NCBI GenBank assembly: GCA_942493035.1
Contig: OW818666.1
Span: forward strand, 4,129,464-4,193,463
Length of the DNA: 64,000 nt
Direction: 5' to 3'
Origin: an uncultured Spirochaetota bacterium
GTDB taxonomy: Bacteria; Spirochaetota; UBA4802; UBA5550
The notes beneath the pieces are model-generated. The model was not told the origin of the DNA and searched no databases. It worked only from the letters and a program-made list of their open reading frames with translations. Within the stretch, counting starts at the first letter, position 1. Each line of letters begins with the position of its first letter. Below are positions 2,442 to 60,814 of the stretch, one piece after another. The translations under genes and the position numbers were made by a program.

Positions 2442-4676
2442 ATGAAAACAAGTTTTAAACGGGTAAAAATAAAAGTAAAAGGGATAGTCCAGGGCGTAGG
2501 CTTCCGTCCCGCTATGGCTAAACAGGCTCTCTTAATGAGGCTTACAGGGAAAGTCTGCAACACCAGAGATTCCGTAGAAATTGAGATTCAGGGTGATATA
2601 GAGACTGTTCAGCAGTACATCGACCTGTTTGATAGTTTTGTCCCTGAAAATGCAGTTATATCTTTTTTCTCGACAGAGGAGATTCCGTGGGTTCCAGACG
2701 GAAAGACATTCAGTATAATTGAAAGCAGAGAATCGGGGCCGACGAGATTCAGTATCCCTCCCGATATAGCAATGTGCGGCAGATGCCGTGATGAGTTTTA
2801 TGATACTCAAAACAGAAGATATCTCTATCCGTTTATAACCTGCGGCAACTGCGGCCCGCGGTACACCTACATGAAAGATATGCCATATGACAGGGCAAAG
2901 ACATCTATGTCTGCTTTCCCATTCTGTCAGGAATGTGCAGATGAATATAATAATCCTGAAGACCGGCGTTATCATATAGAGGGATTTTCATGTCATGTAT
3001 GTGGTCCTGCCGTGTCCGGTTTTGAAGAGACTATAGCTGCATTACTTGATGGTAAAGTTGCTGCTGTTAAAGGTCTTGGGGGATATAATATTGTCTGCTC
3101 TGCAGTAGATTATAATGCGGTGCAGAGACTTCGAGATAGAAAGCGCAGGCCTGGTAAACCATTTGCAATAATGTTCAGATCTTTAGAAACAGCCCGTCAG
3201 TATGTAAACATTGCTCCTGAAGAGGAGAGACTTCTGACATCAAAGGTGTCCCCCATAGTTGTAGTCAGAAAGAGGGAGCATTCGGCGATTGCGGAGAATA
3301 TTGCTCCGGATAACGGATATCTGGGGATAATGATTCCATATACTCCGCTTCACCAGCTAATTCTTGACCGGGCGGATATACCTTTGGTTATGACAAGCGC
3401 AAATATATCGGGAGATCCATTGATAATAAACGATGATAAAGCTTTATCGGAACTTGCAGATATAGCCGATGTTTTTTTAACGCATAACAGAGAGATATAT
3501 AAGAGAGCTGACGATTCTATTTCGTTTATATCCGGCGGAAAAGAGATAAGTATAAGGATGGGGAGAGGTAGAATGCCCTATCCTGTAAAACTCCCTGAAG
3601 AGAGCAGAAATAAAATCCTCGCTGTGGGAGCTGAGCTGAAGAGTAATATCTCTGTTGTATCAGATGATAATCTTGTAACCAGCAATCATATTGGAGACCT
3701 GGGTACACCGGAGACATTTTCGCACTTTCTGGAAACAATTCTTGAAATATCGGATTTTTATGATATAAAACCTGATGTGGTAATTGCTGACCTTCACCCC
3801 GATTACGAGTCAACATCCTTTGCCCGGGAATTTTCAGATAAATACAATATCCGGCTTATGCAGGTTCAACATCATTATGCACATTTTCTTTCATGTTATT
3901 TTGAAAACGGTTTAAACGGCAAAGCGGTTGGGATAATTTTTGACGGTACAGGTTATGGAACTGACGGCACCATCTGGGGCGGAGAAATTTTTACAGGAGA
4001 TCTGCATTCATTCAGCAGGGTCGGCAGACTCGCTCCTTTTCCCCTGCCCGGCGGAGAGAGAGCAATTCGTGAACCATGGCGAATCCTCTCGGGACTTCTC
4101 GATGAAGAAGATTTTTTTAACTGCTGTTCCTGGGTGGATAAAAGTGTTCTTGATAATGTACTGCAGATTTCAGCAAACAGAAATTTTTCACCCTTAACTT
4201 CAAGTGCCGGCAGACTCTTTGATGCGGCCGGGTCGCTTCTAGGATTTAATAAAAATGTTTCATATGAAGCGGAGGCTGCAATCTATATGGAGATGCTTGC
4301 GCTGAGAAGCAGCAGTGATGAATATATCTCTGTCCCGATAACAGAAGAAAACGGTTTATTTGAATTCAACTCACCGGAACTGATTAAAGAGTTATACCGG
4401 AGAAAAAAATCGGGAGATAGTTTATACGATCTTGCAAAGATTTTTCACAATTCGCTGATTGAAGGAGCGGCTAATATAGCCGCAGAGGTCTGTTATAAAA
4501 ACGGAACTGATCAGGTAGTTTTAAGCGGAGGTGTTTTTCAGAACAGGATTATGCTTGATTTGGCCGAAAAAAAGCTTGCGTCTAAAGGGTTGAAAGTTTT
4601 TATTAACAGAAATATCCCTTCAAGCGATGCGGGGATTTCAGCCGGACAGGCAATTTACGGGGTTTACAATGCATGA
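2442..4676 (+). CDS. hypF: Carbamoyltransferase HypF
   Basis: GIVQGVGFRP acylphosphatase domain, two CxxC-x18-CxxC zinc fingers, DLHPDY, QHHYAH, FDGTGYG, DAGISAGQ. Confidence 0.97.
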   Translation: MKTSFKRVKIKVKGIVQGVGFRPAMAKQALLMRLTGKVCNTRDSVEIEIQGDIETVQQYIDLFDSFVPENAVISFFSTEEIPWVPDGKTFSIIESRESGPTRFSIPPDIAMCGRCRDEFYDTQNRRYLYPFITCGNCGPRYTYMKDMPYDRAKTSMSAFPFCQECADEYNNPEDRRYHIEGFSCHVCGPAVSGFEETIAALLDGKVAAVKGLGGYNIVCSAVDYNAVQRLRDRKRRPGKPFAIMFRSLETARQYVNIAPEEERLLTSKVSPIVVVRKREHSAIAENIAPDNGYLGIMIPYTPLHQLILDRADIPLVMTSANISGDPLIINDDKALSELADIADVFLTHNREIYKRADDSISFISGGKEISIRMGRGRMPYPVKLPEESRNKILAVGAELKSNISVVSDDNLVTSNHIGDLGTPETFSHFLETILEISDFYDIKPDVVIADLHPDYESTSFAREFSDKYNIRLMQVQHHYAHFLSCYFENGLNGKAVGIIFDGTGYGTDGTIWGGEIFTGDLHSFSRVGRLAPFPLPGGERAIREPWRILSGLLDEEDFFNCCSWVDKSVLDNVLQISANRNFSPLTSSAGRLFDAAGSLLGFNKNVSYEAEAAIYMEMLALRSSSDEYISVPITEENGLFEFNSPELIKELYRRKKSGDSLYDLAKIFHNSLIEGAANIAAEVCYKNGTDQVVLSGGVFQNRIMLDLAEKKLASKGLKVFINRNIPSSDAGISAGQAIYGVYNA

Positions 4677-5013
4677 ATTGAGTCTTGCAATGAGCGTGCG
4701 GGAGATTGTTGAAGATGCCGCTAAACAGAACGGTGCAAAAAAGGTTAATGAAGTAAATATAATTGTCGGAGAGTTTAGTTCAGTATCCTCCGATGCTCTT
4801 GAGTTTGCAATGGAAGTTGCTAAAAAGGGTTCTGTTTTTGAATTCGCTAAAATTAATATAAAATCTACAAAGACAATTCTTTCATGCAGTCAGTGCAATC
4901 AGGAGACAGTTATGGAAGACTACATTTTTAAATGCGGTGCCTGCGAATCCACATCAGTAAAGATTGTATCCGGCGATAGAATGTACGTTGACTCAATTGA
5001 TATAGAAAACTAG
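4669..5013 (+). CDS. hypA: Hydrogenase nickel metallochaperone HypA
   Basis: Start corrected to ATG 4669 (MHELSLA, conserved His2), overlapping the hypF stop; CSQC and CGAC zinc motifs. Confidence 0.95.
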   Translation: MHELSLAMSVREIVEDAAKQNGAKKVNEVNIIVGEFSSVSSDALEFAMEVAKKGSVFEFAKINIKSTKTILSCSQCNQETVMEDYIFKCGACESTSVKIVSGDRMYVDSIDIEN

Positions 5014-5023
5014 GAGAATTTTA

Positions 5024-5719
5024 ATGCATTACGTTGAACTTGAAAAAGATCTTCTTCATCAGAATGATAAACTTGCGGAAAACATAAAGAGTAATATGGA
5101 CGATCATCAGATATATGTTCTTAATATTATGAGTGCACCGGGTGCCGGTAAAACAAGTCTCCTTGAGGCGGTGCTCCCTGAACTTGCAAAGAAATACAGA
5201 ATAGCGGTAATTGAGGGAGATATTCAGGGCTCTGCCGATGCAGACCGACTCTCTAAACTGAATATAAATGTGCACCAGATAAACACGCACAGCCTGTGTC
5301 ATCTTGAAGCTGCTATGATTGAGCGGGCGCTTACAAACTTTGATCTTCACAAAATAGACTGTCTGATAATCGAAAATGTAGGGAACCTTGTCTGCCCGGC
5401 AGATTTTTTTCTCGGAGAGGATGAAGTAATAATGGTAGCATCAGTTTCCGAAGGACACGACAAGCCTCATAAATATCCTGTGATGTTCAGCAAGGCAGAT
5501 CTTATTGTTCTTAACAAAGTTGATATTTTAGATTCAACCAATTTCGATACAGATATTTTTTACAAACAGGTTCGTGAACTTAACAGAGATGCAGGAATAA
5601 TGGAAGTTTCAGCAACTAAAGGGACTAATGTTTCGAAACTGATTAATCACATTGAACATGGTATACAGCATAAAAAAGGGCACCATCATCATGATCACGG
5701 CGATCATCATCACCATTGA
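5024..5719 (+). CDS. hypB: Hydrogenase nickel GTPase HypB with C-terminal His tail
   Basis: SAPGAGKTS, IEGD, CHL, ENVGNLVCP, EGHDKPHKYP, NKVD; ends HKKGHHHHDHGDHHHH. Confidence 0.95.
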   Translation: MHYVELEKDLLHQNDKLAENIKSNMDDHQIYVLNIMSAPGAGKTSLLEAVLPELAKKYRIAVIEGDIQGSADADRLSKLNINVHQINTHSLCHLEAAMIERALTNFDLHKIDCLIIENVGNLVCPADFFLGEDEVIMVASVSEGHDKPHKYPVMFSKADLIVLNKVDILDSTNFDTDIFYKQVRELNRDAGIMEVSATKGTNVSKLINHIEHGIQHKKGHHHHDHGDHHHH

Positions 5720-13508: not shown

Positions 13509-16500
13509 ATGAATAGAATATTTTTAATCTACATCTCTTCGCTTGTCATAACCGCTGCTGGTATTTATTATGCAGGGGCGCAGGATCATTCCGGTTTTAA
13601 AGAAAAAATGATTCAATTCCTGGAAAATGCCGGGACAAAAAGTGATTCTGCTGAACCGGCAAATCCGGAAAATAATGTCTTTCTTCGATCTGATAATAAT
13701 AACAATACATTTTTTAAAAGCGGTGAATGGTCGGAATATGTTTCCAATCCTGAATCGTTTATAAATCCGGAGCAGTTTAAAAACGGAAATCTTTATTCCG
13801 ATGAGAAGATAAACATAAATGCTTCCGGTTCCGTTAATGTAAATCTCAACTACGGTAAATCATACTATACCAGCAAAAAATATATTCAGTATGATGAGGA
13901 TCTCCCGTATTCAAGAGTTATCGATTCGGGATTCTGGCCGGAGCAGAAAATTCTCCTGCACATGGACGGAACTATCGGTGATAGAATAACCGTTTTTATC
14001 GATCATGACAGCAGCCGGAAAGAAAATCAGTATATGCTCAATTACCGTGCCCTCTCTGATGATGAAGTTATCCGCGAGATAAATGCCGGAGAGATTGATA
14101 TAAAATTTAATCACTCCAGATATGCAGTTTATGACAATACTGATGCAAAAGGTCTTGGTGTCGATTTTACTCTGGCAAAGAATGATTTTACATTAAAAGC
14201 CTTCGGCAGTGTGGCACGGGGTGAAACAATGGTGGAATATTTTAAGGGTAATTCATCTCCATCCGGTATTAAAATTGCGGAATATCAGTATATAAGCGCA
14301 ACCTATTATCAGCTCGAACCTTTTATCCGCTACGACGGAGCTGCTGTAACTCCTTCAGGGAGCGGAGCTTATTCTCTTGTAACATTTACTTCAGCACCGG
14401 CTAATCCAGCGGCATATGTTCTGTCTCCCGTTAACATCTCACCGTCAGATTTTGAACTCTATGTAGACGATCAGAACCAGTATAACAACAATAACGCAAT
14501 TGTCCTCCCCCTCGACGGGGGATATTATACAAGAATGGTCAGCGGTAGTGATTATTCTATTAATTTTTCTACAGGGGTTATTCATTTATTGAAGGAGTTT
14601 CCTCAGAGTTCAAGGATATTTGCAGTATATAAACGGACAGGGGGGACTCTTGATCCATGCGCATTATCATCTGGACCCGGGATATTTTCCAACAGAATAT
14701 TTGTTTTTATAAAATACGGCTACTCCATTGATGAAGATCGAAACAAAGATCTGGTGCTGGATACCGGTGAAGATAGAAATGGCGACGGCAGAGTTAATCT
14801 TGATATCTATGAAATCAGATCGGTCTATTTTCTCGGTAACAGGCAGATTCTTTCATCAGACTTTTCCATAGATTTTTATAAAGAGAATCAGATTATGGAT
14901 AAGGAGGATATAACTAAACTCAGCAGCTATAGGCTTAATCTCCAGGAAGGTTTAATTCAATTCTCTACAAGGGAGCCCTTTAAATCAGTTCTGCCTGCAG
15001 ATAAAGCGGCCAGAATTTATACTGAAACGAAAGTTATTGATGGCTATCTCTACTCATTATATAATATGATCTCTGAGTTCAATGTTGAGGCGCGGCTGTT
15101 CAAGTTAAAGTATAGTAATGTCATTGATAAGAGTGTCCGGGTCAAGATCAATGAAGTTGAACTCTCTCCATCTTTATATAGTGTAGATTATGAATCAGGC
15201 TATATAAATTTTATAGATTCAAATAATCCTGTAATAAGTTCAGATTCAAGAATTGAAATTAAATATGAGTATCTCCCATTCGGCTCTTCAAGTGAAAACT
15301 TCATCAGCGGCGTACGTGCAGATTATGATTTAAACAAAAGCCTGAGACTCGGCGGAACCATAATGTTTTCCAAAGACGGACAGAGTGAAATTATTCCCGA
15401 TATCGGAAATGTAAGCGAGCAGACGCTGCTATTCGAAGGGGATGCGTCGCTAAGGCTTTCGCAGAAGCGTCTGGCGGATCTATATAATATTTTTGCAGAG
15501 AGAAAAAAGAGATCTATTCCGGCGGAATTCTCCGCCTATGCCGAGTATGCAAAGAGCATTAAAAATGTGAATACGTTCGGAAAAGCCCTTATTGACAACA
15601 TGGAGACCTCGGACGAAATAGTTTCAGTTTCACTGTCAGAGAAAGACTGGATTCTGTCATCTCTCCCTGCCTCATATTCGCAAAGCAGCCGGGGTCTGCT
15701 GAATTACTATTTTTACAGAAATCCCGATTCCCCCGAGACATTAAAGGGTGAAGGGTATAATTCCTACCTGATAAATTACTCAGTAAAATCAGGACCGTTT
15801 AATATTGCAATGGGGCATGTTGATTCTGATATTACAGAGCAGGCTTATCAGAAGTCTCTTGTTTTTGATTCTAATTTCTCAGCAGGTCAGAATATTGTAA
15901 GTGCTGTAACAAGAGAACTGACTGATACCTCCATAGATCTCTCGGGGATGCAGTACGTTGAAGTATGGGTTAAATATGAAGGTGGAGCTTCGGACTCGGT
16001 GGACCTCAAGCTCGACTTCGGTTCAGTAGATGAGGATTCCGATGGTGACGGAGTATTTGATACGGAAGATGCAAACAGGAACGGATACATAGACTCTGAA
16101 CCGTCAACGGGATACTCCGAGGATCGTGGATATGTTTTTAACCCGGCCGGCGGGACAGCGACAAAGATCGGTTCAGGACCGGGTCTGAGCAGTTTAACAA
16201 AGGGTGATGGTGTACTTACCAGTGAGGATCTTAACGGGAATGGTCTGCTTGATATAACTAATAATATTTATCAGGTGGACGTCGGGACTATTACTCCGGC
16301 TGGTGGAGTATGGCAGAAGCTCAGAGTTCATATCGACTGGAGTACTGTCTCATCATCGCAGATACAGGCGCTTCAGCAGACAAAAAGTATTAGACTTAAT
16401 CTTGTAAGAAATAACGGATCATCCGGCCGTGTGTCAATCGATACTCTTAAAGTCATAAGTGCAAAATGGAAAAATCCGAAGCTGAATGACATCACTCCTA

Positions 16501-19157
16501 TCAATGATCCGGAGACTATGAAGATTACACTTGTAAACAGCATTAGTGACAGCGATTACAGAAATGAATCCTTTCTAATCAGAGAGAGATCATTGTATAA
16601 ACAGCTTTATGGAGATGAAAGCACCGATGATATAGAGAGCGAAAGCGAAACGGCCCTGCAGATAGAATATAATCTTAATGCACCGGATTATGCTTCGGTT
16701 ATAAGAAAGTTTTCAAAAGAGATAGATATAAGATTTTATAAAACAATGAATTTATGGCTTAATGTCAGAGATAGTATCTCATCAAATGTGATCGGATTCA
16801 TCATCGGATCATCTGACAGTGATTTTATTGAATACAGAATCACCCCGAATTTCAGTATGATCTGGAGTGAGATTAAATTAAAATTATCTAAAGATTCCAG
16901 CGGGAATATTGATAAGTATCAGGTCACAGGAAATCCCGATTTAAAAAGAATAAAATATATCAAAGCAGTAGTGCATGGAAACGGAAGCAGCGGTAAAATC
17001 TGGCTTAACGAAATATATGTATCTGAGCCTGAAACACTGGAGGGTGATGCTAAGTGGTATGAATTTGAAATGAAAACACTAAGACCTCTGTTTAAAACTG
17101 CTTCCGGTGTACCTGTTCTTTCCGATATGAATTTACGTTATATATATAAAGGGCACTCTTCTCAGTTCAGTTCAGTGAATAAAACTTCATCTGATGTAGA
17201 AGAAAATTATCATGAGCTTTTTGCATCTGCGAAGATCCTCCCCAATTGGGATACAAATTTTAATTATGTCAATGAATTCAGCAGAACGGACAGTTTGAAT
17301 GAAGAGGTTGCCGACGCAAAAAAAGGGGATGCACGGAGAAATTTTTTCATGGTGAATTCGGTTTTTAATTCTACCGTAGAGAATGTTCCTTCGATTACAT
17401 TTTCATACTCATTTGATAAAAATGAGAATATAAGAGAGGCGGCATCTGAAGGGAGCAGTTACAGCGAAGATTCAATCAGTGTAATTCACACACCGGTTAT
17501 TTTATACAGACAGGATCTTGAAGATTTTCTTTACGGGAAATTTTCACTCAGGATGATTCTTGATATGGCTTTTTCGCATAACAAAATAGATCGTGATTCG
17601 TCCGTGATAGATGACGCAATGCTTTCATCATCAGTAGTCTTGAGTGAGTCTGAAAAAAAACAGAAATCTGATGCTAAAATTGAACTGGATTATGCAAACA
17701 GTCTGTTCTTTTTTCGTCCCCAGTTTACAACATCTTCTATCGAATATGTAATGTTAAACGGAGGGGATAATTATGATGAAACAGGTGTTGACGGCGGTTT
17801 AAACGGGAATTTCTATTTACCGTTCCGGAACTATGATGACTCAAAGTTTATAGAGAGAAATAACGGGACAGGTTTTACTCTGGGAGTAAAGTTTCTGGAA
17901 TATCTGTCTCCGGAATATTCCATGAGTGTAGATTATAAAGAGAATGCATTTAAAGATTATAAAGATGAAACGGTAATCGATGAAGGTTTCAGCCGGTTTA
18001 AAAGCACCATGTCCAATTTAACTTCGGAGATTACACTCCCTTTCCAGTTAAGAAAAATTGAAGTGTTAAAAAGAGTAAAAAATTTTCAGTTGAATTATCA
18101 GCGTTCAATATATTTTAATGAAGCTGATGTCCCCTATGAGGGGGAGGGAACCGGTCTTTTTGATGAAGAATACGGGATATCAAATGTGCTTAAAGGAGCT
18201 GCTTCACCCGCTTATAATCTGATTTCAAATTATCCCGGATTATATTTCAGAGGGAGAGGGAATGCCGGGAAGGGCCGTGATTTATTATATAATGCTTTAA
18301 ATGATGATGACGGCATCAGTGAGCTTGGCAGTTCAAGTGAATATAATAATTCGCTCAAACTTGTAGATAGATTAAATGCCGATATCTCTGTTGATGCGGA
18401 TCTATTCAAATTTTATTCTTCAGGGAGTATCAGCCAGGTCTGCGAAAGGAGTAATGTTTACGGAATTCCAAATCAGGTATTGATTGCGGACACCGGTGTG
18501 AATTTTGAGTTTGATCTTATGAAGATATTCAGCTTCGGTTTTTTCAGGGCAAATGGTGAGGGCTTGTCATATCATGCTGCGAATTTTGACGTTGGTCTGA
18601 GTTTTACGGACAGTATGCTCATTACATATAATATAAATGAAAAGAAGATTGCTCCATCAGCGGGATTCGTTTTCAACTGGAACAGGAGCAGTCTGAATTT
18701 AAAATATGAATTTGAATTCAGAGATAAAAACAATGAAGAATATATAAGTACATCTCTTGAAGAAGATGATACTGATTTTATCTATCTTCAGAATATGGAG
18801 GGGAGCAGCAGTTTCAGCGAGAAGGATTACGGCCATGTATTTCTTTCGAGGTATGAAACAGACATCGAATGGCTCTATTCATTTTTTTCGAACTTCTACA
18901 AATTAACAGGTATACCGTTATTTTCTATAGAATACAGAATGGAGATAAATAGATACGATTATTTTAAAACCGTGGCGCCTGAACCGTATGACCTTTTTAT
19001 GCTCTCATCAAATCTTAATCTTGATCTTCACAGGAATATTCAGGGTTCTATCGGCGGAAAAATGGCTATGGAAAAATTCAGAAACAGAGAAAATAATGGT
19101 ATAAGCAGAGAGATAATGTCTTATGAAGTCAATGCCGGGATATCTTTTATTTTCTGA
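13509..19157 (+). CDS. SprA/Sov-like large outer-membrane protein
   Basis: Signal peptide, C-terminal Phe, and a colinear series of SprA-type motifs: YSVDYESGYINF, YEY, LIDNME, DLSGMQYVEVW, DFGSVDED, EDLNGNG, DIRFYKTM, GNPDLKRIK, IWLNEI. Confidence 0.7.
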   Translation: MNRIFLIYISSLVITAAGIYYAGAQDHSGFKEKMIQFLENAGTKSDSAEPANPENNVFLRSDNNNNTFFKSGEWSEYVSNPESFINPEQFKNGNLYSDEKININASGSVNVNLNYGKSYYTSKKYIQYDEDLPYSRVIDSGFWPEQKILLHMDGTIGDRITVFIDHDSSRKENQYMLNYRALSDDEVIREINAGEIDIKFNHSRYAVYDNTDAKGLGVDFTLAKNDFTLKAFGSVARGETMVEYFKGNSSPSGIKIAEYQYISATYYQLEPFIRYDGAAVTPSGSGAYSLVTFTSAPANPAAYVLSPVNISPSDFELYVDDQNQYNNNNAIVLPLDGGYYTRMVSGSDYSINFSTGVIHLLKEFPQSSRIFAVYKRTGGTLDPCALSSGPGIFSNRIFVFIKYGYSIDEDRNKDLVLDTGEDRNGDGRVNLDIYEIRSVYFLGNRQILSSDFSIDFYKENQIMDKEDITKLSSYRLNLQEGLIQFSTREPFKSVLPADKAARIYTETKVIDGYLYSLYNMISEFNVEARLFKLKYSNVIDKSVRVKINEVELSPSLYSVDYESGYINFIDSNNPVISSDSRIEIKYEYLPFGSSSENFISGVRADYDLNKSLRLGGTIMFSKDGQSEIIPDIGNVSEQTLLFEGDASLRLSQKRLADLYNIFAERKKRSIPAEFSAYAEYAKSIKNVNTFGKALIDNMETSDEIVSVSLSEKDWILSSLPASYSQSSRGLLNYYFYRNPDSPETLKGEGYNSYLINYSVKSGPFNIAMGHVDSDITEQAYQKSLVFDSNFSAGQNIVSAVTRELTDTSIDLSGMQYVEVWVKYEGGASDSVDLKLDFGSVDEDSDGDGVFDTEDANRNGYIDSEPSTGYSEDRGYVFNPAGGTATKIGSGPGLSSLTKGDGVLTSEDLNGNGLLDITNNIYQVDVGTITPAGGVWQKLRVHIDWSTVSSSQIQALQQTKSIRLNLVRNNGSSGRVSIDTLKVISAKWKNPKLNDITPINDPETMKITLVNSISDSDYRNESFLIRERSLYKQLYGDESTDDIESESETALQIEYNLNAPDYASVIRKFSKEIDIRFYKTMNLWLNVRDSISSNVIGFIIGSSDSDFIEYRITPNFSMIWSEIKLKLSKDSSGNIDKYQVTGNPDLKRIKYIKAVVHGNGSSGKIWLNEIYVSEPETLEGDAKWYEFEMKTLRPLFKTASGVPVLSDMNLRYIYKGHSSQFSSVNKTSSDVEENYHELFASAKILPNWDTNFNYVNEFSRTDSLNEEVADAKKGDARRNFFMVNSVFNSTVENVPSITFSYSFDKNENIREAASEGSSYSEDSISVIHTPVILYRQDLEDFLYGKFSLRMILDMAFSHNKIDRDSSVIDDAMLSSSVVLSESEKKQKSDAKIELDYANSLFFFRPQFTTSSIEYVMLNGGDNYDETGVDGGLNGNFYLPFRNYDDSKFIERNNGTGFTLGVKFLEYLSPEYSMSVDYKENAFKDYKDETVIDEGFSRFKSTMSNLTSEITLPFQLRKIEVLKRVKNFQLNYQRSIYFNEADVPYEGEGTGLFDEEYGISNVLKGAASPAYNLISNYPGLYFRGRGNAGKGRDLLYNALNDDDGISELGSSSEYNNSLKLVDRLNADISVDADLFKFYSSGSISQVCERSNVYGIPNQVLIADTGVNFEFDLMKIFSFGFFRANGEGLSYHAANFDVGLSFTDSMLITYNINEKKIAPSAGFVFNWNRSSLNLKYEFEFRDKNNEEYISTSLEEDDTDFIYLQNMEGSSSFSEKDYGHVFLSRYETDIEWLYSFFSNFYKLTGIPLFSIEYRMEINRYDYFKTVAPEPYDLFMLSSNLNLDLHRNIQGSIGGKMAMEKFRNRENNGISREIMSYEVNAGISFIF

Positions 19158-22396: not shown

Positions 22397-22540
22397 CTGT
22401 CTGCGAGTTTTCTTTTAAAAAGAATGTTATTCTGCTGTTTCTGAATTTCAAGTTAAATATTTCAAGCTGTGAAAAAACAGATTTTTTATCATCGTGATGA
22501 ATTGCTGCCATATCTGTTATTCATAGTGCAGTTCTTTACA

Positions 22541-22674
22541 GGGTAAAGGCCAGCTGTTTTCCGACTTCCTGTCGGTGCTGGCATGCGAACGTCGTGTCCG
22601 CTCGGGCGGTAGCCCCTTTATAAGCCCCGCAGGGCTCCCTGCGGTCCGGAAACTGTGTTTTTGGGACCGCCCCG
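22541..22674. other. GC-rich structured intergenic element; candidate ncRNA or leader of unknown family
   Basis: About 63% GC (hand count 85/134) inside AT-rich flanks, with at least four hairpins; no riboswitch or housekeeping-RNA consensus recognised. Confidence 0.45.
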
Positions 22675-22751
22675 TTGTCAAAGACTATTGTTGTTGACAT
22701 TTGAGATTTTTATATAAATATTAATTATCTGAATTAGAGAGGATTTTTGTT

Positions 22752-23642
22752 ATCAAATCATATGCTAAAATTAATATTCATCTGGAAATTTTAAACCGGA
22801 GAAGTGATAATTATCACAATCTTTTCAGTCTCATGGCAGAGCTCGATCTTCATGATTTTTTAGAGCTTGAGTATTCAGATCTGTCAAAAAAAAGCAGAGA
22901 TGTAACGATTGAAATTTTAAACAACGGCGGGGAGTTCTCCTCTGTTATTGACCATATCCCTGTAGAAGATAATCTCATTTCAATTGCAGTAAAAAAATAT
23001 ATGAATGAGATCGGGCTCGGCGGTCATTTTGTTTTCGGTTTAACAAAAAATATCCCCTCAGGTGCAGGTCTGGGCGGAGGGAGCAGCAATGCCGCCACAG
23101 CCTTAATGATCATCGCTGAAGCTCTCGGCAGGGGTTATGATGATTTTCTGCTTAATGCGGCGTCGTCAACAGGTTCAGATATTCCATTTTTTCTAAAAGG
23201 GGGATTTTCATTTGTAGAAGGGAGAGGAGAGTTTGTATCCCCCTTTGATTACAGTGATGACTCTTTTATACTTCTGATTAATAACGGAATACATGTAAAT
23301 ACCGGTTCAGCATATGAATCTTTAAAAAAACCAGTTTCTGATTCTGTTTTTGATTGTACCGATGGAATAAAATTAATAAGAGAAAATATTTATAAAAAAT
23401 CGGACTGGAAGTCAATTTTCAGAAATGATTTTGAGGAGAGTGTTTTCGAATTGTATCCTCAGATCGGGTCTATTAAAGAGAAAATGTACAAAACCGGGGC
23501 ATATTTTTCTGCAATGTCAGGCTCAGGATCTACTGTATTTGGACTGTTTCAGAGCCGATTTGAGGCTGAAAATGCACAAAAAATTTTTGAAATGGATAAA
23601 AACAGGGTCTATTTAACTAAATTCCGCTGTAATAAAAATTAA
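22752..23642 (+). CDS. ispE: 4-diphosphocytidyl-2-C-methyl-D-erythritol kinase
   Basis: KNIPSGAGLGGGSSNAA, GSDIPFF, MSGSGSTVF. The conserved AKINxxL...RxDxYH segment lies upstream of the first ATG (22833); start placed at ATC 22752 behind an AGAGGA RBS. Confidence 0.93.
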   Translation: MKSYAKINIHLEILNRRSDNYHNLFSLMAELDLHDFLELEYSDLSKKSRDVTIEILNNGGEFSSVIDHIPVEDNLISIAVKKYMNEIGLGGHFVFGLTKNIPSGAGLGGGSSNAATALMIIAEALGRGYDDFLLNAASSTGSDIPFFLKGGFSFVEGRGEFVSPFDYSDDSFILLINNGIHVNTGSAYESLKKPVSDSVFDCTDGIKLIRENIYKKSDWKSIFRNDFEESVFELYPQIGSIKEKMYKTGAYFSAMSGSGSTVFGLFQSRFEAENAQKIFEMDKNRVYLTKFRCNKN

Positions 23643-23709
23643 TGATTGACTTTCATAGCGTATATTGAGAAATGTGTCGTTAGTTTTTAGTAATAAAAAC
23701 TGAAATGAT

Positions 23710-23781
23710 TGAGGCGTCGCCAAGCGGTAAGGCACCGGGTTTTGGTCTCGGCATCCCAAGGTTCGAATCCTTGCGCCTCAG
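23710..23781 (+). tRNA. tRNA-Gln (anticodon TTG)
   Basis: Acceptor stem TGAGGCG/CGCCTCA, D-loop AAGCGGTAA, anticodon arm CCGGG-TTTTGGT-CTCGG, GTTCGAATC T-arm; CCA not encoded. Confidence 0.97.
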
Positions 23782-23805
23782 ATTTTATCAATTAGGAGAT
23801 CGATA

Positions 23806-24555
23806 ATCAAAAAAATCTCTTCAATTGTGCTCGCCGGGGGGAAAGGAGTTCGGATGAAATCCGAACTACCTAAAGTACTTCATCCGCTATGTGGAAAATC
23901 CTTAATTGAACATGTTGTGGATAGTCTGAATTCTGCAGGGATTGACGATATTCTTGTCGTTGTCGGCTACAGAGGTGAAGAAGTAATTGCAAAACTCGGG
24001 AGCCGGTGTAAGTATGTATGGCAGCATGAACAGCTGGGTACAGGTCACGCCGTTATGCAGGCCGGGGAATACTTCAAGGACTACGATGGCAATGTTGTAA
24101 TCGCCTGTGGAGATGTCCCTTTAATACGGCCTGAAACTTTCAAGGGTTTAATAGAATCTGCAGAAGATAACGAAACCGGTGCAGTGGTTCTTACAATGAT
24201 GCAGGATAATCCTAAGGGGTATGGACGAATAGTTAAAGAAAATGGAAAATTTGTCCGTATTGTGGAAGAAAAAGACGCTGACGATGAGCAGCGTAGAATA
24301 AATGAAGTAAACAGCGGTACCTATATTTTTAAAAGCAGGTATCTCTTTGAGGGATTGAAAAGGATTAATACTGAAAATGCGCAAGGGGAGTATTATCTTC
24401 CTGATGCATTGAATTATATAGTAAGTGCAGGTTTGACTGTAAAAACTATTCCAATGGAAGATTCTGTAGAGGGACGGGGAATAAATACACGGGAAGAGCT
24501 GTTGTCTCTGGAGCAATATGTTTCGAAGAAAATCGAGGATAAGTCTCATGAATAA
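23806..24555 (+). CDS. glmU: UDP-GlcNAc pyrophosphorylase (GlmU N-terminal domain only)
   Basis: IVLAGGKGVRMKS, PKVLH, QLGTGHAV, GDVPL, YGRI, EVNSG, GEYYLPD; no left-handed beta-helix. Start placed at ATC 23806 behind AGGAGA. Confidence 0.85.
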   Translation: MKKISSIVLAGGKGVRMKSELPKVLHPLCGKSLIEHVVDSLNSAGIDDILVVVGYRGEEVIAKLGSRCKYVWQHEQLGTGHAVMQAGEYFKDYDGNVVIACGDVPLIRPETFKGLIESAEDNETGAVVLTMMQDNPKGYGRIVKENGKFVRIVEEKDADDEQRRINEVNSGTYIFKSRYLFEGLKRINTENAQGEYYLPDALNYIVSAGLTVKTIPMEDSVEGRGINTREELLSLEQYVSKKIEDKSHE

Positions 24556-28900: not shown

Positions 28901-29626
28901 CTATTTCTTTTCAATAAAAAACCAGTCCACAGGGCCGTTTTTTTTATCATACTTAAGAATACGGTCCTTATCTTTTGTTAAAAAATGTCTTTTAAGCCAT
29001 GATGTTCTTAGTGTGATATTAACATCTGCCGGTGCTGCAGGAGGAGTGCTTTTTTTTAGAAATGATTCCTGACCGCTTTTTACAACGTATGCCTCGATTA
29101 TCGAAGGATCGATATTTGCAAAACCGGCTTCTCCTTTATATACAAACAAACCTGTTTCGCTGGAGCCGGTAATGATACTCATAGATGCAGAGACCGATTT
29201 GATAATTGCAGTTCTCGTTTTAATAACGAGCGATGCATCAGAGAAATCATTTTCCTGAATTATTTTAAAACTTCCATAATCTGAAAATATATTTGTAAGT
29301 GTTTTATCTCTTTTGTTTATAATACTGAAAATAATCAGATCTGAATTTTCCATTAAGTCTATAGCAGTTCCGTCATTCAGAAGTATAGATGTTATAGACT
29401 TTTTGCCAGTTTCTATTCTGTCCCCCGGGAAAATCAGTTTATCCTCACGGGTGCAGTCATCAGAATCACAGTTTATATTTGTTTTTTTTACATATCCGTT
29501 CTTTTTAACTATTCTCCCAATGCTGATGCTTTCTGCATAAGTAAAAGTCTGGAACAGAAATATGAGAAGGGTGATTTTAATTATTGATTTGATATCTGTT
29601 CTCCTGTTTATAATTTTTTTATCCAA
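28901..29626 (-). CDS. FecR-domain exported protein
   Basis: TTG start; GDRIETG, LNDGTAIDL.ENS, IKTRTA beta-strand pattern. Confidence 0.8.
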   Translation of the reverse strand: MDKKIINRRTDIKSIIKITLLIFLFQTFTYAESISIGRIVKKNGYVKKTNINCDSDDCTREDKLIFPGDRIETGKKSITSILLNDGTAIDLMENSDLIIFSIINKRDKTLTNIFSDYGSFKIIQENDFSDASLVIKTRTAIIKSVSASMSIITGSSETGLFVYKGEAGFANIDPSIIEAYVVKSGQESFLKKSTPPAAPADVNITLRTSWLKRHFLTKDKDRILKYDKKNGPVDWFFIEKK

Positions 29627-29794
29627 TATGTTATGTCATTAATTGTTCTCAAAACTGTAGAGCTTGTATCTCTGCAGCGCCTACTGCACGGTAGAGAGCA
29701 TTTTTCCCATCAGTTTATAAATACTGTTCATACATGTGTTTTTAAGAAAAGCATTTATTCAGTAAGTTACTTCTTTCAGATTATTTTTATAAAT

Positions 29795-34322: not shown

Positions 34323-35825
34323 ATGTTCAGGATATATATGATAACAGAGTATAGAAAACAGATTTATGAAAAAATTCTTAAAGGTGAACCGGTTAAGCTC
34401 AGTTTTAAATATGTGACCGATGATCTTTTAATGTTTATTAATAGTATTTTAACCAGAGAGCTGGCTAAACATGATTTACAATATCTTATATATTCTGTTG
34501 TAACTATTTTAAGGGAGTTAATTGTAAATGCATTAAAAGCAAATACTAAGAGAATTTTCTTTGAAAGCAATAATCTGGATATAAATAATCCCTCAGATTA
34601 CATTGAAGGAATTGAAAGATTTAAAAATGAGATTGTCGGTGATTTTGATTCTATCAAAGATATAATTCAACAGAATGATCATAGTATTAATTTAAATATA
34701 ATTGAAGAGAAAGAAGCTCTTTTATTTACAATAAAGAATAGCGTTGCTATTATTCCTGAAGAATTGGCAAGAATTAACATGAGAATTGCTCTGGCTGTTG
34801 AAAAGAACAGTTTTAATGATATATATGACACCATTGAAGATGAAACAGAGGGTGCAGGTCTCGGGTTAGCCCTTATTGTAATGTTTCTTAAAAGCATGGG
34901 TGTAGCCCCTGCTGCATTTAATTTAAAGAGTGACGGAAAAGTAACTGTTGCATCAGTTCAGCTCCCTTATCAGCTCAAACCGGCCGAAGTTACTACTACG
35001 GTAAAAAAACAGATACTTGAAGAGATAACAGGTATACCTACTTTTCCTGAAAATATTATAACGCTGCTTCAGATGTGTTCAAGCCCTGATGCTGACATTG
35101 AAAAAATTGCACAGACAATAAAACTTGATGTATCAGTAACATCTGATGTAATAAAACTGGCAAACTCAGCAGGTTTTATATCCGGGCAGAAGGTTGATGA
35201 TATCAACAGGGCCGTGATGAAAATCGGTCTAAAAAATCTTAAGAATATTCTTCTTGCCAGTAATGCAAGGAAAATTATGGAGAGCAGATACAGCAAGTTT
35301 GAAGAGATCTGGGAGCATTGCAACAGGGTCGCTTTTTATTCAAGACAGATTGCTCTTACATTTAAAGTTCCCGGCGGCGCTGCTGATAATGCTTATGTTG
35401 CGGGACTCCTTCACGATCTGGGCCAGGTGGTTCTACTTGCTGTAGATATGGAATCGGTTAGAAAAATTGCAGAGATTGTTCATGACAGGAATATTATTTC
35501 AACCACTGTTATGGAGGAACTCTCCATAGGTATAAGTCATGCAGAGATTGGAAATATGGTTTCTGAAAAGTGGAATTTTCCCGAATTTCTGGCTCAGATA
35601 ATCAGGCATCACCACTCACCTTTAAATCTGCCTGAGGAGTTCAGGGATGTGGGGTTTTGTGTCTATCTTGCAAACATGATTGCAGGAATTGAGAAGAGAA
35701 AATATTACTATTATTATATTGAAGAGATGGTTCTGGAAAAATTCAGCATAAAAGATGAATCTGAATTATTAAAACTGAATGACTTCCTTAAATCTGAATA
35801 CAGTAATGCTCAGAAGAAATTCTGA
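34323..35825 (+). CDS. HDOD-domain signalling protein with N-terminal GHKL/HATPase-like region
   Basis: RELIVNA and GAGLGL boxes; IPTFP, IKLANS, AGLLHDLG, HAEIG, WNFP, HH.P. Confidence 0.85.
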   Translation: MFRIYMITEYRKQIYEKILKGEPVKLSFKYVTDDLLMFINSILTRELAKHDLQYLIYSVVTILRELIVNALKANTKRIFFESNNLDINNPSDYIEGIERFKNEIVGDFDSIKDIIQQNDHSINLNIIEEKEALLFTIKNSVAIIPEELARINMRIALAVEKNSFNDIYDTIEDETEGAGLGLALIVMFLKSMGVAPAAFNLKSDGKVTVASVQLPYQLKPAEVTTTVKKQILEEITGIPTFPENIITLLQMCSSPDADIEKIAQTIKLDVSVTSDVIKLANSAGFISGQKVDDINRAVMKIGLKNLKNILLASNARKIMESRYSKFEEIWEHCNRVAFYSRQIALTFKVPGGAADNAYVAGLLHDLGQVVLLAVDMESVRKIAEIVHDRNIISTTVMEELSIGISHAEIGNMVSEKWNFPEFLAQIIRHHHSPLNLPEEFRDVGFCVYLANMIAGIEKRKYYYYYIEEMVLEKFSIKDESELLKLNDFLKSEYSNAQKKF

Positions 35826-36979
35826 GCATTACATACAGCTTCGTTATAAACTTCCTTTAATGGAACATTATATTTTATTGCTGCATTTTTACAATCTTCA
35901 TATTCGGGTGATAGAGTAACAGGATTCCCATTAAATTTGTGGATCTTCACTTTTATTATTCCGAATTTTGTTTCAATACCCTGCAGGGTTCTTTCCAGTA
36001 TTTTCCTTTTTACTATATTTATTCTAACACCGGATGTTGTTGTTTCTCTGAAAACAATCTCTGTAATACGGTCTGACTTTTCTTTTGGTGAAAGAATTTT
36101 CAGTATGTGACCGGGGCGGTTTTTTTTCATTACAGCCGGGATAACAGAAATATCCAGAGCCCCATTCATTAAAAGAAGTTCAAACAGATAAGAGTAGATT
36201 TCAGGATTCATATCGTCAATTGAAGCTTCCAGTTCGAACACTTCGTCATCAGTTTTATGAATATTTTCATCGTCGCCGATGAAAAGACGGAGTACGTTTG
36301 GAATATCAAGATTTTTTGTACCTGCACCATATCCGATTGATTCTGTTTTCAAATCCGGAAGTGAAGTGAAGTCCCGGCAGTAGTGTTTAATAATTGCGGC
36401 GCCGGTTGGAGTGGTTAATTCGGCTTTAATACCATTTGAGTAGAGAGGTATACCCTTGAGTATCTCGGCAGTTGCAGGAGCAGGAACCGGGAGAGTGCCG
36501 TGTGCGGTCTCTATAAATCCGCTGCCTGTGTTGAGAGGAGATGAAACGGCTTTTTCTATTCCGGCTTTATGAAAACATATTGCAGCACCGCAGACGTCAA
36601 TAATTGAATCTATCCCGCCTATCTCATGGAAGTGTATAGATTCGATATCCGTGTTGTGAATCAATGCTTCAGCTTTTCCGATTATATTAAAAATTGATAC
36701 GGCATTGTCTTTTACTGATGAATGGAGTGTGCTCGACTCAATTATTTTTACAATGGAGCTCAATGACCGGTGTGACTGATCGGATATTACTTCGACATCA
36801 AATTTTGAAGCTGAAATATTATTTTTCAGACATTTTTTATATGATAATGTGTATCCGTCTATATTGAGTTTTTTTAATTCTTTTTCAAGATAAGAGAAAT
36901 CAACGCCTGTATCTAAAAATGCGCCGATTATCATATCGCCACTTACTCCTGCAAAGCAGTCAAAATAGGCTATTCTCAT
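35810..36979 (-). CDS. larC: Nickel insertase for the nickel-pincer cofactor (fused C1-C2)
   Basis: YFDCFAGVSGDM, IHFHEIG..DSI.D, HGTLPVPAPAT, ELTTPTGAA, GYGAG, IDDMNPE, MKKNRPG, ETTTSGVR, PEYED. Confidence 0.95.
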   Translation of the reverse strand: MRIAYFDCFAGVSGDMIIGAFLDTGVDFSYLEKELKKLNIDGYTLSYKKCLKNNISASKFDVEVISDQSHRSLSSIVKIIESSTLHSSVKDNAVSIFNIIGKAEALIHNTDIESIHFHEIGGIDSIIDVCGAAICFHKAGIEKAVSSPLNTGSGFIETAHGTLPVPAPATAEILKGIPLYSNGIKAELTTPTGAAIIKHYCRDFTSLPDLKTESIGYGAGTKNLDIPNVLRLFIGDDENIHKTDDEVFELEASIDDMNPEIYSYLFELLLMNGALDISVIPAVMKKNRPGHILKILSPKEKSDRITEIVFRETTTSGVRINIVKRKILERTLQGIETKFGIIKVKIHKFNGNPVTLSPEYEDCKNAAIKYNVPLKEVYNEAVCNAQNFF

Positions 36980-36984
36980 AAAAT

Positions 36985-37731
36985 TTATCCCCGGTTAATT
37001 ATTGCTGCAAGATATCCTGCACCGAATCCGTTATCGATATTTACTGTTGAAACGCCAGGTACACAGCTATTTATCATCGTAAGGAGAGCAGCTGCACCTC
37101 CAAAGTTTGCACCGTATCCTACACTCGTAGGGACCGCAATTACCGGTCTGCTGACCAGACCCGCCGCCAGGGAGGGGAGAGCTCCCTCCATTCCTGCTAC
37201 TGCCACAATTACGTTTGCACTCTGCAGCAGGTCAATTCTTGCAAGGATACGGTGAACACCGGCTATTCCGACATCGAATAATCTGTCAACAGGTGAGCCC
37301 ATTACCTCTGCCGTGATGGCAGCTTCTTCGGCGACGGGTATATCTGTGGTTCCTCCGGTTATTACGAGGATTCTTTTTTCAGTTACAGGTTCAGGGATTT
37401 TGCCGATGATAATTACCCGTCCGTGAGTGTTGTATGCTATTTCAGAAAAATACGGTTTAAGGAAGGTATATAGTTCTATCGATGCTCTTGTTGCCAGAAT
37501 TACTCTGTTATTCATTGAGAGTCTTTCCGCAATCTCTTTTACCTGCTGATCTGTTTTACCTTCGGCATATATAACTTCAGGCTGTCCGGTTCTTATGGGC
37601 CTATGGTGATCAATGCATGCAAAATCTATGTCTTCATATGGAAGTGATTTAAGCATGGAGAAGGCTTCATCGTTTGTAATCTCGCCTTTCTGTATTTTTT
37701 CAATTAGCGACTTTATTTTTTCCTCATTCAC
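36985..37731 (-). CDS. larB: Nickel-pincer cofactor carboxylase/hydrolase
   Basis: DHHR..RTG.PEVIY.EGKT, GTTD.PVAEEA, DVGIAG.HR, AGMEGALPS, PTSVGYG, VNIDNGFGA. Confidence 0.96.
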   Translation of the reverse strand: MNEEKIKSLIEKIQKGEITNDEAFSMLKSLPYEDIDFACIDHHRPIRTGQPEVIYAEGKTDQQVKEIAERLSMNNRVILATRASIELYTFLKPYFSEIAYNTHGRVIIIGKIPEPVTEKRILVITGGTTDIPVAEEAAITAEVMGSPVDRLFDVGIAGVHRILARIDLLQSANVIVAVAGMEGALPSLAAGLVSRPVIAVPTSVGYGANFGGAAALLTMINSCVPGVSTVNIDNGFGAGYLAAIINRG

Positions 37732-38558
37732 TGCTTTTCCTCTATGTTTATGTTCATGCTCCCTGTCCGGTATCCCTGAAGATCGAGAGTTATATACTTA
37801 AAGCCTGATTCTTTAAGATCTGCAAATACTTTTTTCCGCATTGCCGAAGATGCAATCTCTTCAATCATGTCCTCTGCAATTTCAATGCGTAGAATCTCAC
37901 CATGAAGTCTGGCGCGAATTTTTTTAAATCCGTATGAAGTTAAAATTTTTTCTGCAATCACGGCTTTATTCACAAGCTCAACTGTTAACGGTGTCCCGTA
38001 TGGAATTCTTGTCGCCAGACAGGGATATGATTCTTTTTCTGAAGTCGGGAGTTCCAGGTATGAGGATAATTCATATATACTTTTTTTATCAAAACCGGCA
38101 ATCTTTAAAGGGCTTAGAACTCCCAGTTCATCTATTGCTTTCATGCCGGGTCTGTAATCATTCATATCTCCGGAATGAGATCCTTCCAGAATAGTATTAA
38201 TTCCTTCCGCTGATGCGGCAGAGATGATATTATTTAAAATAATGGTTTTGCAGTGATAACATCTTTCAGGGTTGTTATCAGTTATTTTTTTAAAAGAAAA
38301 TATATCTATATCGATAATCCGGTGATCAATGTTGAGTGAAGATATAACAGATACTGCTGATCTGATTTCATCTTCGGTAATCATCGCGGTATTTACGGTA
38401 TAAGCAATAAGTTTTAAATCTGGATTTAATGATGCAGCAAAGAGCAGCAGTGTACTGTCAACACCTCCGGAGTATGCAATAGCCGCAGATTCGATAGTTG
38501 AAAGATAATGTTTTAGATTAAAAAATTTCTTTTCAGTTTCAGATGAGAGTTTTATCAC
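37728..38558 (-). CDS. larE: ATP-dependent sulfur transferase for the nickel-pincer cofactor
   Basis: GTG start; AYSGGVDS PP-loop, RCYHCK, DYRPG, PCLATRIPYG, GYRTGSMN. Confidence 0.95.
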   Translation of the reverse strand: MIKLSSETEKKFFNLKHYLSTIESAAIAYSGGVDSTLLLFAASLNPDLKLIAYTVNTAMITEDEIRSAVSVISSLNIDHRIIDIDIFSFKKITDNNPERCYHCKTIILNNIISAASAEGINTILEGSHSGDMNDYRPGMKAIDELGVLSPLKIAGFDKKSIYELSSYLELPTSEKESYPCLATRIPYGTPLTVELVNKAVIAEKILTSYGFKKIRARLHGEILRIEIAEDMIEEIASSAMRKKVFADLKESGFKYITLDLQGYRTGSMNINIEEKQ

Positions 38559-60513: not shown

Positions 60514-60814
60514 GATTATATACTCTCATATACTGAATCCTATAACTTCAGAAAAGTTTGTCAATTATGAAAATCTGCTGATAGATATGAATTGTCAGAA
60601 TAAAAGGATTTTAAGTTCTTGTATACCCGTCTGGCCAGCCGGAAAAATTTATTTAAAATAATAATTAATTTGACATATGAACATAAAATTGTAGTTTCTT
60701 TACGGTTAGAAATCTATCCGCACAAAAAAGAGTAAACATTGCTTAATGAAAACTCTCTTATGATGCGTATAAATTAAAAAAAAATATATATAAATTTTAT
60801 CCAGGAGGATATTC

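Follow-up and report, generated by a model that had tools for sequence, protein, structure and literature searches.

The subject of this analysis is a pair of genes in a 64,000-nucleotide (nt) stretch of the genome of an uncultured Spirochaetota bacterium (GenBank assembly GCA_942493035.1, contig OW818666.1, positions 4,129,464 to 4,193,463 of the forward strand; below, the window, with coordinates counted from its first letter). The local gene order is ispE, tRNA-Gln, glmU-N, prs, L25/ctc and pth, and the placement of tRNA-Gln between ispE and the glmU-like gene (glmU for short) is common to all relatives and outgroups. Both ispE and glmU lack a canonical start codon (ATG, GTG or TTG) ahead of the conserved beginning of their products, and both are predicted to be translated from an ATC codon that follows a Shine-Dalgarno (SD) sequence (Table 1). 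This had been proposed in a first-pass annotation of the window, and the positions given there for the start-less stretch of ispE, for both SD sequences and for both ATC codons are borne out, as is the observation that the SSIVLAGG core of the glmU product begins upstream of the GTG at 23827. The same annotation placed the two genes in one operon, which is not established, the tRNA gene lying between them; the interval from ispE to glmU yielded no terminator-like site.

In the ispE frame, the upstream stop is the TAA at 22722-22724, and the first in-frame ATG, GTG or TTG of the window sequence is the ATG at 22833. The codons before this ATG read L S E L E R I F V I K S Y A K I N I H L and so on (from the stop to the core, LSELERIFV-I-KSYAKINIHLEILNRRSDNYHNLFSL), and they include the AKxN motif, the lysine of which has a catalytic role in IspE. 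The corrected product scores 144.6 bits against the TIGR00154 profile, the cut-off being 138.7, with residues 2-283 covered; its residues 3-30 align with the N-terminal core of solved IspE structures, and the N-terminus matches 2v2q from residue 9. The segment that is missing from the truncated call corresponds to residues 9-36 of solved IspE, AKxN lysine motif included.

In the glmU frame, reading from the ATC at 23806 yields I K K I S S I V L A G G K G (translated N-terminus, I-KKISSIVLAGGKGVRM), with the GTG at 23827 encoding the V of SSIVLAGG, and a start at this GTG or at the next ATG would cost the protein strand beta-1 or the nucleotide-binding GxGxR loop. The product matches positions 3-243 only of the 452 positions of the TIGR01173 profile, with 266 bits against a cut-off of 366.85, and profile comparison found no C-terminal hexapeptide-repeat acetyltransferase domain in its 249 amino acids (aa). 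Thus the name given to this gene in the first-pass annotation would fit at most the N-terminal uridyltransferase (pyrophosphorylase) domain; since the acetyltransferase domain is absent, the gene should not be filed as a bifunctional GlmU. The same short architecture is found in all close relatives, for which the NCBI name is 'sugar phosphate nucleotidyltransferase'. What the protein shares with bifunctional GlmU (TIGR01173 / PRK14354) is the N-terminal part, 245 residues of which span the full uridyltransferase domain and are 40-50% identical to GlmU proteins of solved structure, whereas bifunctional GlmU has in addition a C-terminal left-handed beta-helix acetyltransferase domain and the protein described here scores below the family cut-offs. 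The end of glmU and the ATG of prs (24548) share an 8-nt overlap, a hint that translation of the two genes is coupled.

Table 1. Features of the ispE-glmU region and their coordinates in the window (ATH, any of ATC, ATT and ATA; L174 and L175, outgroup loci; P0001, stored protein call for this genome; CDS, coding sequence)
Feature	Position	Strand	Remarks
Promoter-like site TTGACA, 17 nt, AATATT	22694-22722	+	upstream of ispE; 10/12 matches, consensus match only
ispE Shine-Dalgarno AGAGGA (extended, AGAGAGGA)	22738-22743 (extended, 22736-22743)	+	ends 8 nt 5' of ATC 22752
Predicted ispE start codon ATC	22752-22754	+	homologous codon ATH in clade, ATG in outgroup L174
Corrected ispE CDS	22752-23642	+	296 aa plus stop
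First canonical ATG of ispE, internal Met rather than start	22833-22835	+	automatic gene call P0001, 269 aa
tRNA-Gln (anticodon UUG)	23709-23782	+	between ispE and glmU
Possible SD-occluding hairpin	23789-23827	+	CAAUUAGGAGAU pairs with AUCUCUU-C-AAUUG; start codon in 14-nt loop
glmU Shine-Dalgarno AGGAGA	23794-23799	+	ends 6 nt 5' of ATC 23806
Predicted glmU start codon ATC	23806-23808	+	homologous codon ATH in clade, ATG in outgroup L175
Corrected GlmU-N-like nucleotidyltransferase CDS	23806-24555	+	249 aa plus stop
GTG of glmU, one automatic start call; Val of strand beta-1	23827-23829	+	27 nt from SD

Orthologous loci were collected from independent assemblies (JGI, ENA, NCBI and Logan) and are denoted L001, L081, L082, L085, L088-L092 and L168-L176. 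In a scan of genome contigs with an IspE alignment, distant homologues dominated and one close locus (L001) was recovered; a scan of metagenomes with the GlmU-like protein yielded five, and the remaining close loci came from exact-protein look-ups. The distant loci were reused as baselines for start codon usage. The related loci are mutually no more than 91% identical in nucleotides. The closest named genome is 'Spirochaetae bacterium HGW-Spirochaetae-5' (Spirochaetota), with 70% identity in IspE.

Among the related loci, 13 of 16 have no canonical start in ispE between the upstream stop and the AKxN motif, and at glmU the same holds for the stretch between the upstream stop and the conserved core in all 15; the two in-frame TTG/ATG codons that were flagged in the glmU scan fall inside the tRNA gene. 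The first-pass annotation had pointed to orthologue starts as a check on its proposal, and the comparison agrees with it, relatives carrying ATC, ATT or ATA (ATH; AUH in the mRNA) at the homologous codon and outgroups ATG. Specifically, the ispE codon homologous to 22752 is ATC in eight, ATT in five and ATA in one of 14 relatives within the clade, and the glmU codon homologous to 23806 is ATC in ten, ATT in three and ATA in one of the 14 genomes of the tree and in no case canonical; in L092, which comes in addition to these 14, an ATC sits one codon nearer to the motif. In-frame stop codons lie 2-3 codons before the ispE ATH in L082, L169 and L089 (in L082, 'TAA AAT ATT ATT AAA TCA') and 1-2 codons upstream of the glmU ATH in seven genomes (L001, L082, L085, L088, L090, L171 and L172; for instance, 'TAA ATA ATC AAA AAA' in L088 and 'TGA ATA ATC' in L090). 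With stops 1-3 codons upstream in so many relatives, nothing can be read into these frames from upstream, and no more than one or two sense codons are left ahead of the conserved AAA.

The signals around the ATH codons are conserved along with them. At glmU, AGGAGA followed by 5-6 nt and the ATH codon is present in 14 of the 15 genomes, and a purine-rich SD precedes the homologous ispE codon in most of the 14 clade relatives, with a spacing of 4-10 nt where it is readable. The ATH codon also marks the point at which the sequence begins to evolve as coding: over the 26 ispE codons from ATH to the first ATG, 8 first, 3 second and 24 third codon positions are variable, and in the 30 nt upstream of ATH every site varies and there is no phase (10/10/10). 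For codons 9-40 of glmU, the corresponding numbers are 8, 3 and 28. Altogether, every sequence-level mark of a near-cognate AUH start that was examined is found at these two genes (no canonical start, an SD at proper distance, coding constraint that sets in at the codon, and a canonical start at the homologous position elsewhere), and the flanking stops point the same way; the proposal that both ATC codons serve as starts thus gains considerably from the comparison.

The homology to a canonical start is seen at the borders of the clade. In the outgroup L174 (49% IspE identity), ispE begins ATG-AAA-GCA-CAT-GCG, the clade counterpart being ATH-AAA-TCA-YAT-GC. In the outgroup L175, where the order ispE, tRNA-Gln, glmU, prs, ctc is kept, the region of the glmU start is TAGGAGAGGTACT-ATG-AAG-AAT-ATC-TCT, the counterpart in L174 being AGGAGATGGACA-ATC-AGG-AAT-ATT-TCT. 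Outside the clade, a canonical start is present in all 71 distant GlmU homologues and in 63 of the 64 distant IspE homologues, and in 49 of the 71 GlmU homologues it is located five codons before strand beta-1, which is the exact place of the ATH codon in the clade. L174 and L091 combine a canonical ispE start with an ATC glmU start. On these grounds, the ancestral state of both genes was ATG, with glmU changed first and ispE later, and because the origins lie at different depths of the tree, we regard the changes as two separate events. Neighbour-joining trees require at least four changes of the third start-codon base in glmU and at least five in ispE, the ATG-to-ATH change counted; within the clade there were at least four at each gene, none of them to G. 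This drift among C, T and A without G hints at selection against a strong start.

A separate observation concerns L073, a metagenome-assembled genome (MAG) of Elusimicrobia with an unrelated ispE. Near the end of its contig (positions ~78-130), the ispE frame is open without a canonical start and GGAG-TTACC-ATA-AAA stands directly ahead of the conserved IspE core, so this may be an independent AUH start in ispE.

The same state is reflected in database gene calls. Among cluster representatives of the GlmU-like protein (58-100% identity), 95 of 120 have aberrant N-termini, which begin at the Met inside GxGxRM or at the Val of beta-1, or run through the tRNA gene; the AKxN motif is missing from 38 of the 75 IspE cluster representatives. 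One NCBI protein, P0005 (294 aa), begins MKSYAK, and its gene opens on the homologous ispE ATC of L176. The ispE start is, then, recognised in one pipeline, and public annotation is inconsistent overall. At the protein level, the NCBI GlmU-like proteins P0141 and P0147 (243 aa), which begin 'MVLAGG', appear to start on the Ile codon before the beta-1 Val, another non-canonical choice and one that differs from the ATC of P0005. Throughout the clade, in essentially every genome, gene callers restricted to ATG, GTG and TTG mis-call both genes: the glmU products come out at 233-242 aa instead of 249 and the ispE products at 242-269 aa instead of 296, with the loss of catalytic or nucleotide-binding elements. 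Family models, structure prediction and the reconstruction of pathways would all suffer from such products. The present finding corrects some hundred gene calls in the databases.

To place these two genes among their neighbors, every open reading frame (ORF) of at least 90 codons in the window was measured for how far its first canonical start lies from the stop upstream. Of approximately 48 genes, only ispE (36 codons) and glmU (32 codons) have a long start-less stretch that encodes conserved protein; in the other real genes, a canonical start occurs within 12 codons of the upstream stop, with the exception of a LarB-like gene. This third start-less ORF (36985-37797, minus strand; 22 codons) has an ordinary GTG start with an SD, and the stretch is an overlap with the upstream gene. 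A third ATC start was considered in a gene for a FecR-like secreted protein (28901-29635, minus strand), where AGGAGA-N6-ATC-AAA-TCA occurs at 29588-29605 (minus strand); it was rejected because AGG-AGA encodes an 'RR' that is conserved in the signal-peptide n-region of relatives, and the TTG at 29626 is the more plausible start of this gene. In the FecR-domain family, too, the gene calls of many relatives are N-terminally short. The approximately 46 other genes of the window give no sign of genome-wide recoding or relaxed initiation.

How initiation would proceed at these sites can be outlined by analogy with known systems. The strong SD at optimal spacing (8 nt in ispE and 6 nt in glmU) would set the 30S subunit on the AUC codon, next to which stands an A-rich second codon (AAA). 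Initiator tRNA would pair with the first two bases of AUC only, with a mismatch at the third, so that the proteins would carry a (formyl)methionine N-terminus and initiation would be inefficient; initiation factor IF3, as elsewhere, would be expected to discriminate against it. Neither infC nor the initiator tRNA is encoded in the window. The ancestral ATG was lost in glmU and then in ispE, and the resulting state has persisted through a large Spirochaetota clade. Given the comparative evidence, translation of ispE from the AUC at 22752 and of the GlmU-N-like gene from the AUC at 23806 is highly probable, and that the weak codon is held in place by selection for low or tunable expression we put at even odds; to the explanation that combines the start sites with selection on their weakness, we assign a probability of roughly 0.7. 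A limited or IF3-tuned supply of isoprenoid and UDP-sugar precursors, in line with the deliberate throttle suggested in the first-pass annotation, would be a plausible purpose, on which the evidence that bears is evolutionary, the involvement of IF3 in particular falling short of an even chance.

Several points weigh against this combined explanation. The avoidance of G rests on approximately eight inferred changes, for which equal rates give (2/3)^8, that is ~0.04, a weak result. In four relatives, ATH codons are paired (ATT-ATA in L001, ATC-ATT in L168, ATT-ATT in L082 and ATC-ATA in L170), so that the exact codon is ambiguous by one there, and in L172, L173 and P0003 a canonical codon further upstream could serve instead, the one in L172 lying upstream of the SD. 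Furthermore, both enzymes are expected to be essential, and 1% of AUG efficiency seems low for them; the host may discriminate against near-cognate starts less strongly than E. coli does.

The rival explanations differ in how much of this evidence they leave standing. That the ATC codons are base-call, indel or assembly errors, with a true ATG or a frameshift in a nearby T or A run, is hardly credible: apart from prior expectation and the presence of homopolymers nearby (TTTTT at 22744-48 and AAAAAAA at 23809-15) nothing speaks for it, and the same state recurs in at least 15 independent assemblies, which come from differing projects and technologies and differ in third bases and flanks, as well as in database calls (~95 clusters for GlmU and 38 for IspE), which excludes such errors and upholds the judgement of the first-pass annotation that two of them were improbable. 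Starts at the downstream canonical codons (the ATG at 22833 in ispE; the GTG at 23827 or the ATG at 23854 in glmU), with N-terminally shortened proteins, are what the stored calls imply, both those of this genome (P0001, 269 aa; P0121, 233 aa) and those of most relatives, and we find this very unlikely, in view of the coding pattern of the upstream segments (8/3/24), which hold the AKxN lysine motif, strand beta-1 and the G-loop, and of the fate of the GTG codon, which is not conserved in four relatives (GTA in L089, ATT in L091 and L092, GTT in L174); moreover, no SD was found ahead of the ATG at 22833, whereas conserved SD sequences stand 5-8 nt before the ATH codons. A further alternative accepts initiation at AUH and denies it any regulatory meaning: in a lineage that tolerates near-cognate starts or discriminates weakly against them, and with little enzyme needed, ATG would have decayed to ATH and drifted among ATC, ATT and ATA. 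The third base does drift, the two changes belong to different tree depths rather than to one coordinated event, and the unrelated Elusimicrobia locus L073 (GGAG-N5-ATA-AAA) suggests that such losses occur occasionally. Against this, only two of the ~48 window genes are affected, which gives no hint of relaxed initiation across the genome; a single mutation would restore ATG, and no such reversion is seen in 15 loci, with ~95 database clusters likewise devoid of a canonical start; and a strong SD and an AAA second codon are kept at both sites, as expected if output matters. We consider this alternative unlikely on balance, and a neutral course in which the need for enzyme is tiny and the weak codon merely tolerated may still be viable.

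Another possibility is that glmU is governed mainly by an RNA element, in which the SD (AGGAGAU) pairs with codons 4-6 (AUCUCUU) in a hairpin that follows a co-transcribed tRNA-Gln, the weak AUC in the loop being one component of a switch that a factor, temperature or tRNA processing would open. The tRNA-Gln has no encoded CCA and the glmU leader begins directly after it, so in the case of co-transcription, tRNA processing would leave glmU with a very short leader. Across the 12 closest genomes (region 23789-23835), the third positions of glmU codons 2-10 are invariant in 8 of 9 cases, compared to 24 of 70 in codons 11-80. Minimum-free-energy folding gives the helix, its inner 7-bp part is the RNAalifold consensus, and this inner helix is kept in all 14 sequences, with one compensatory change (U-A to C-G) and one G-C to G-U change. 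However, the fold has an unremarkable energy (-9.3 kcal/mol, z = -0.1), and 142 of 500 shuffles reach the observed covariation, which is not significant. L091, L170 and L174 lack an intact outer 5-bp stem, and each arm is under a constraint of its own, the SD in one and the encoded protein in the other. No Rfam match was obtained for the hairpin, since scans against Rfam, whether at gathering thresholds or at E <= 1, matched only the tRNA, and ispE shows nothing comparable at synonymous sites. Thus the hairpin is structurally plausible and conserved, lacks statistical support, and is a lead rather than a finding; as the main control of glmU, it is improbable. A still bolder combination, namely that weak AUH starts and a constrained, possibly SD-occluding RNA at the glmU start after a co-transcribed tRNA-Gln form a dedicated translational control coupling envelope precursors (the isoprenoid lipid carrier and the nucleotide sugar) to the state of translation (the ratio of IF3 to ribosomes and tRNA processing), possibly as the tip of a larger AUH-start regulon in the clade, must be rated as a long shot.

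Several other features of the window were recorded. If the promoter-like site upstream of ispE is used, the ispE leader would be ~20-25 nt long; the TTGTTGACA motif is found again 5' of ispE in L001, L168, L172 and L085. The divergent intergenic region between the gene for a SpoIIE-type phosphatase and ispE (22540-22690) is a GC-rich stretch in a genome otherwise low in G+C and folds into several hairpins (z = -4.0 for the minus strand and -2.45 for the plus strand), with no Rfam match and with conservation not obvious in L001 or L085. An in-frame TGA at 61373-61375 (plus strand) joins an ORF with a twin-arginine translocation (TAT) signal and an Fe4S4 domain (60794-61372) to a molybdopterin-oxidoreductase ORF (61376-63811), the junction being '...LEHQARI*HSSTVASLAATFGRGAMTNHW'; this TGA looks like the selenocysteine codon of a formate-dehydrogenase-type enzyme, and if it is read as such, the two ORFs would make up one gene. 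The hydrogenase maturation genes hypF, hypA and hypB form a cluster at 2442-5716, and at 35813-38558 (minus strand) a LarC-like nickel-insertion gene adjoins the LarB-like gene of the AIR-carboxylase family, both being nickel-pincer cofactor genes. A very large ORF (13509-19157, plus strand; 1882 aa) has no Pfam match at E <= 1e-5, and ORFs of 1884-1892 aa occupy the same relative position in L171 and L173.

Near-cognate starts are known from several bacteria. IF3 autoregulates its own gene, infC, through an AUU start. Initiation at AUA, AUC and AUU in E. coli reaches ~0.02-3% of that at AUG, an N-terminal Met has been confirmed by mass spectrometry for an AUC start, and among natural genes of this species, non-canonical starts are confirmed only for infC and pcnB, both with AUU (10.1101/063800). 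In the spirochete Borrelia burgdorferi, the AUU start of pncA (BBE22) is experimentally established and the annotation is still truncated (PMC13398362). The GTC start of sigR in Streptomyces is repressed by IF3 (PMC5472188), and ebpA of Enterococcus faecalis has an ATT start (PMC4447247). For ispE and glmU, our literature search turned up no report of a non-canonical start.

As in infC and pcnB, a near-cognate AUH codon with an SD ahead of it appears to be the sole start of a conserved gene in both ispE and glmU and is kept over evolution; in the E. coli genes, the weak codon lowers the output and, in infC, also makes it sensitive to IF3. Unlike infC and pcnB, the genes described here mostly have AUC, with AUU and AUA variants, encode biosynthetic enzymes rather than translation or RNA-processing factors, and show the trait within a single Spirochaetota clade. 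The Borrelia pncA gene resembles them in the phylum, in the truncated annotation from a downstream canonical codon and in a catalytic N-terminus that begins at a rare AUH codon, and differs in being backed by genetic, biochemical and structural proof as against comparative evidence, and in being a single plasmid gene as against two neighboring chromosomal genes in many genomes. In sigR and ebpA, the non-canonical start sets or regulates the level of expression, as it would in ispE and glmU; both differ in codon and gene class and have been tested experimentally. Considering these parallels, the starts of ispE and glmU seem to belong with the known near-cognate starts of infC, pcnB, pncA and ebpA, and the mechanism would be of a familiar kind; the distinctive points are the use of AUC, the presence in two adjacent genes with independent origins, and the persistence through a large clade.

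Natural AUC starts that are stable in evolution are very rare. Two long-lived and independent cases in separate biosynthetic routes provide a natural system in which to ask why a start would be kept weak and whether IF3 reads it, and the nested origin of the two changes, together with the drift among C, T and A without G, makes selection on these codons testable with more genomes of this Spirochaetota clade.

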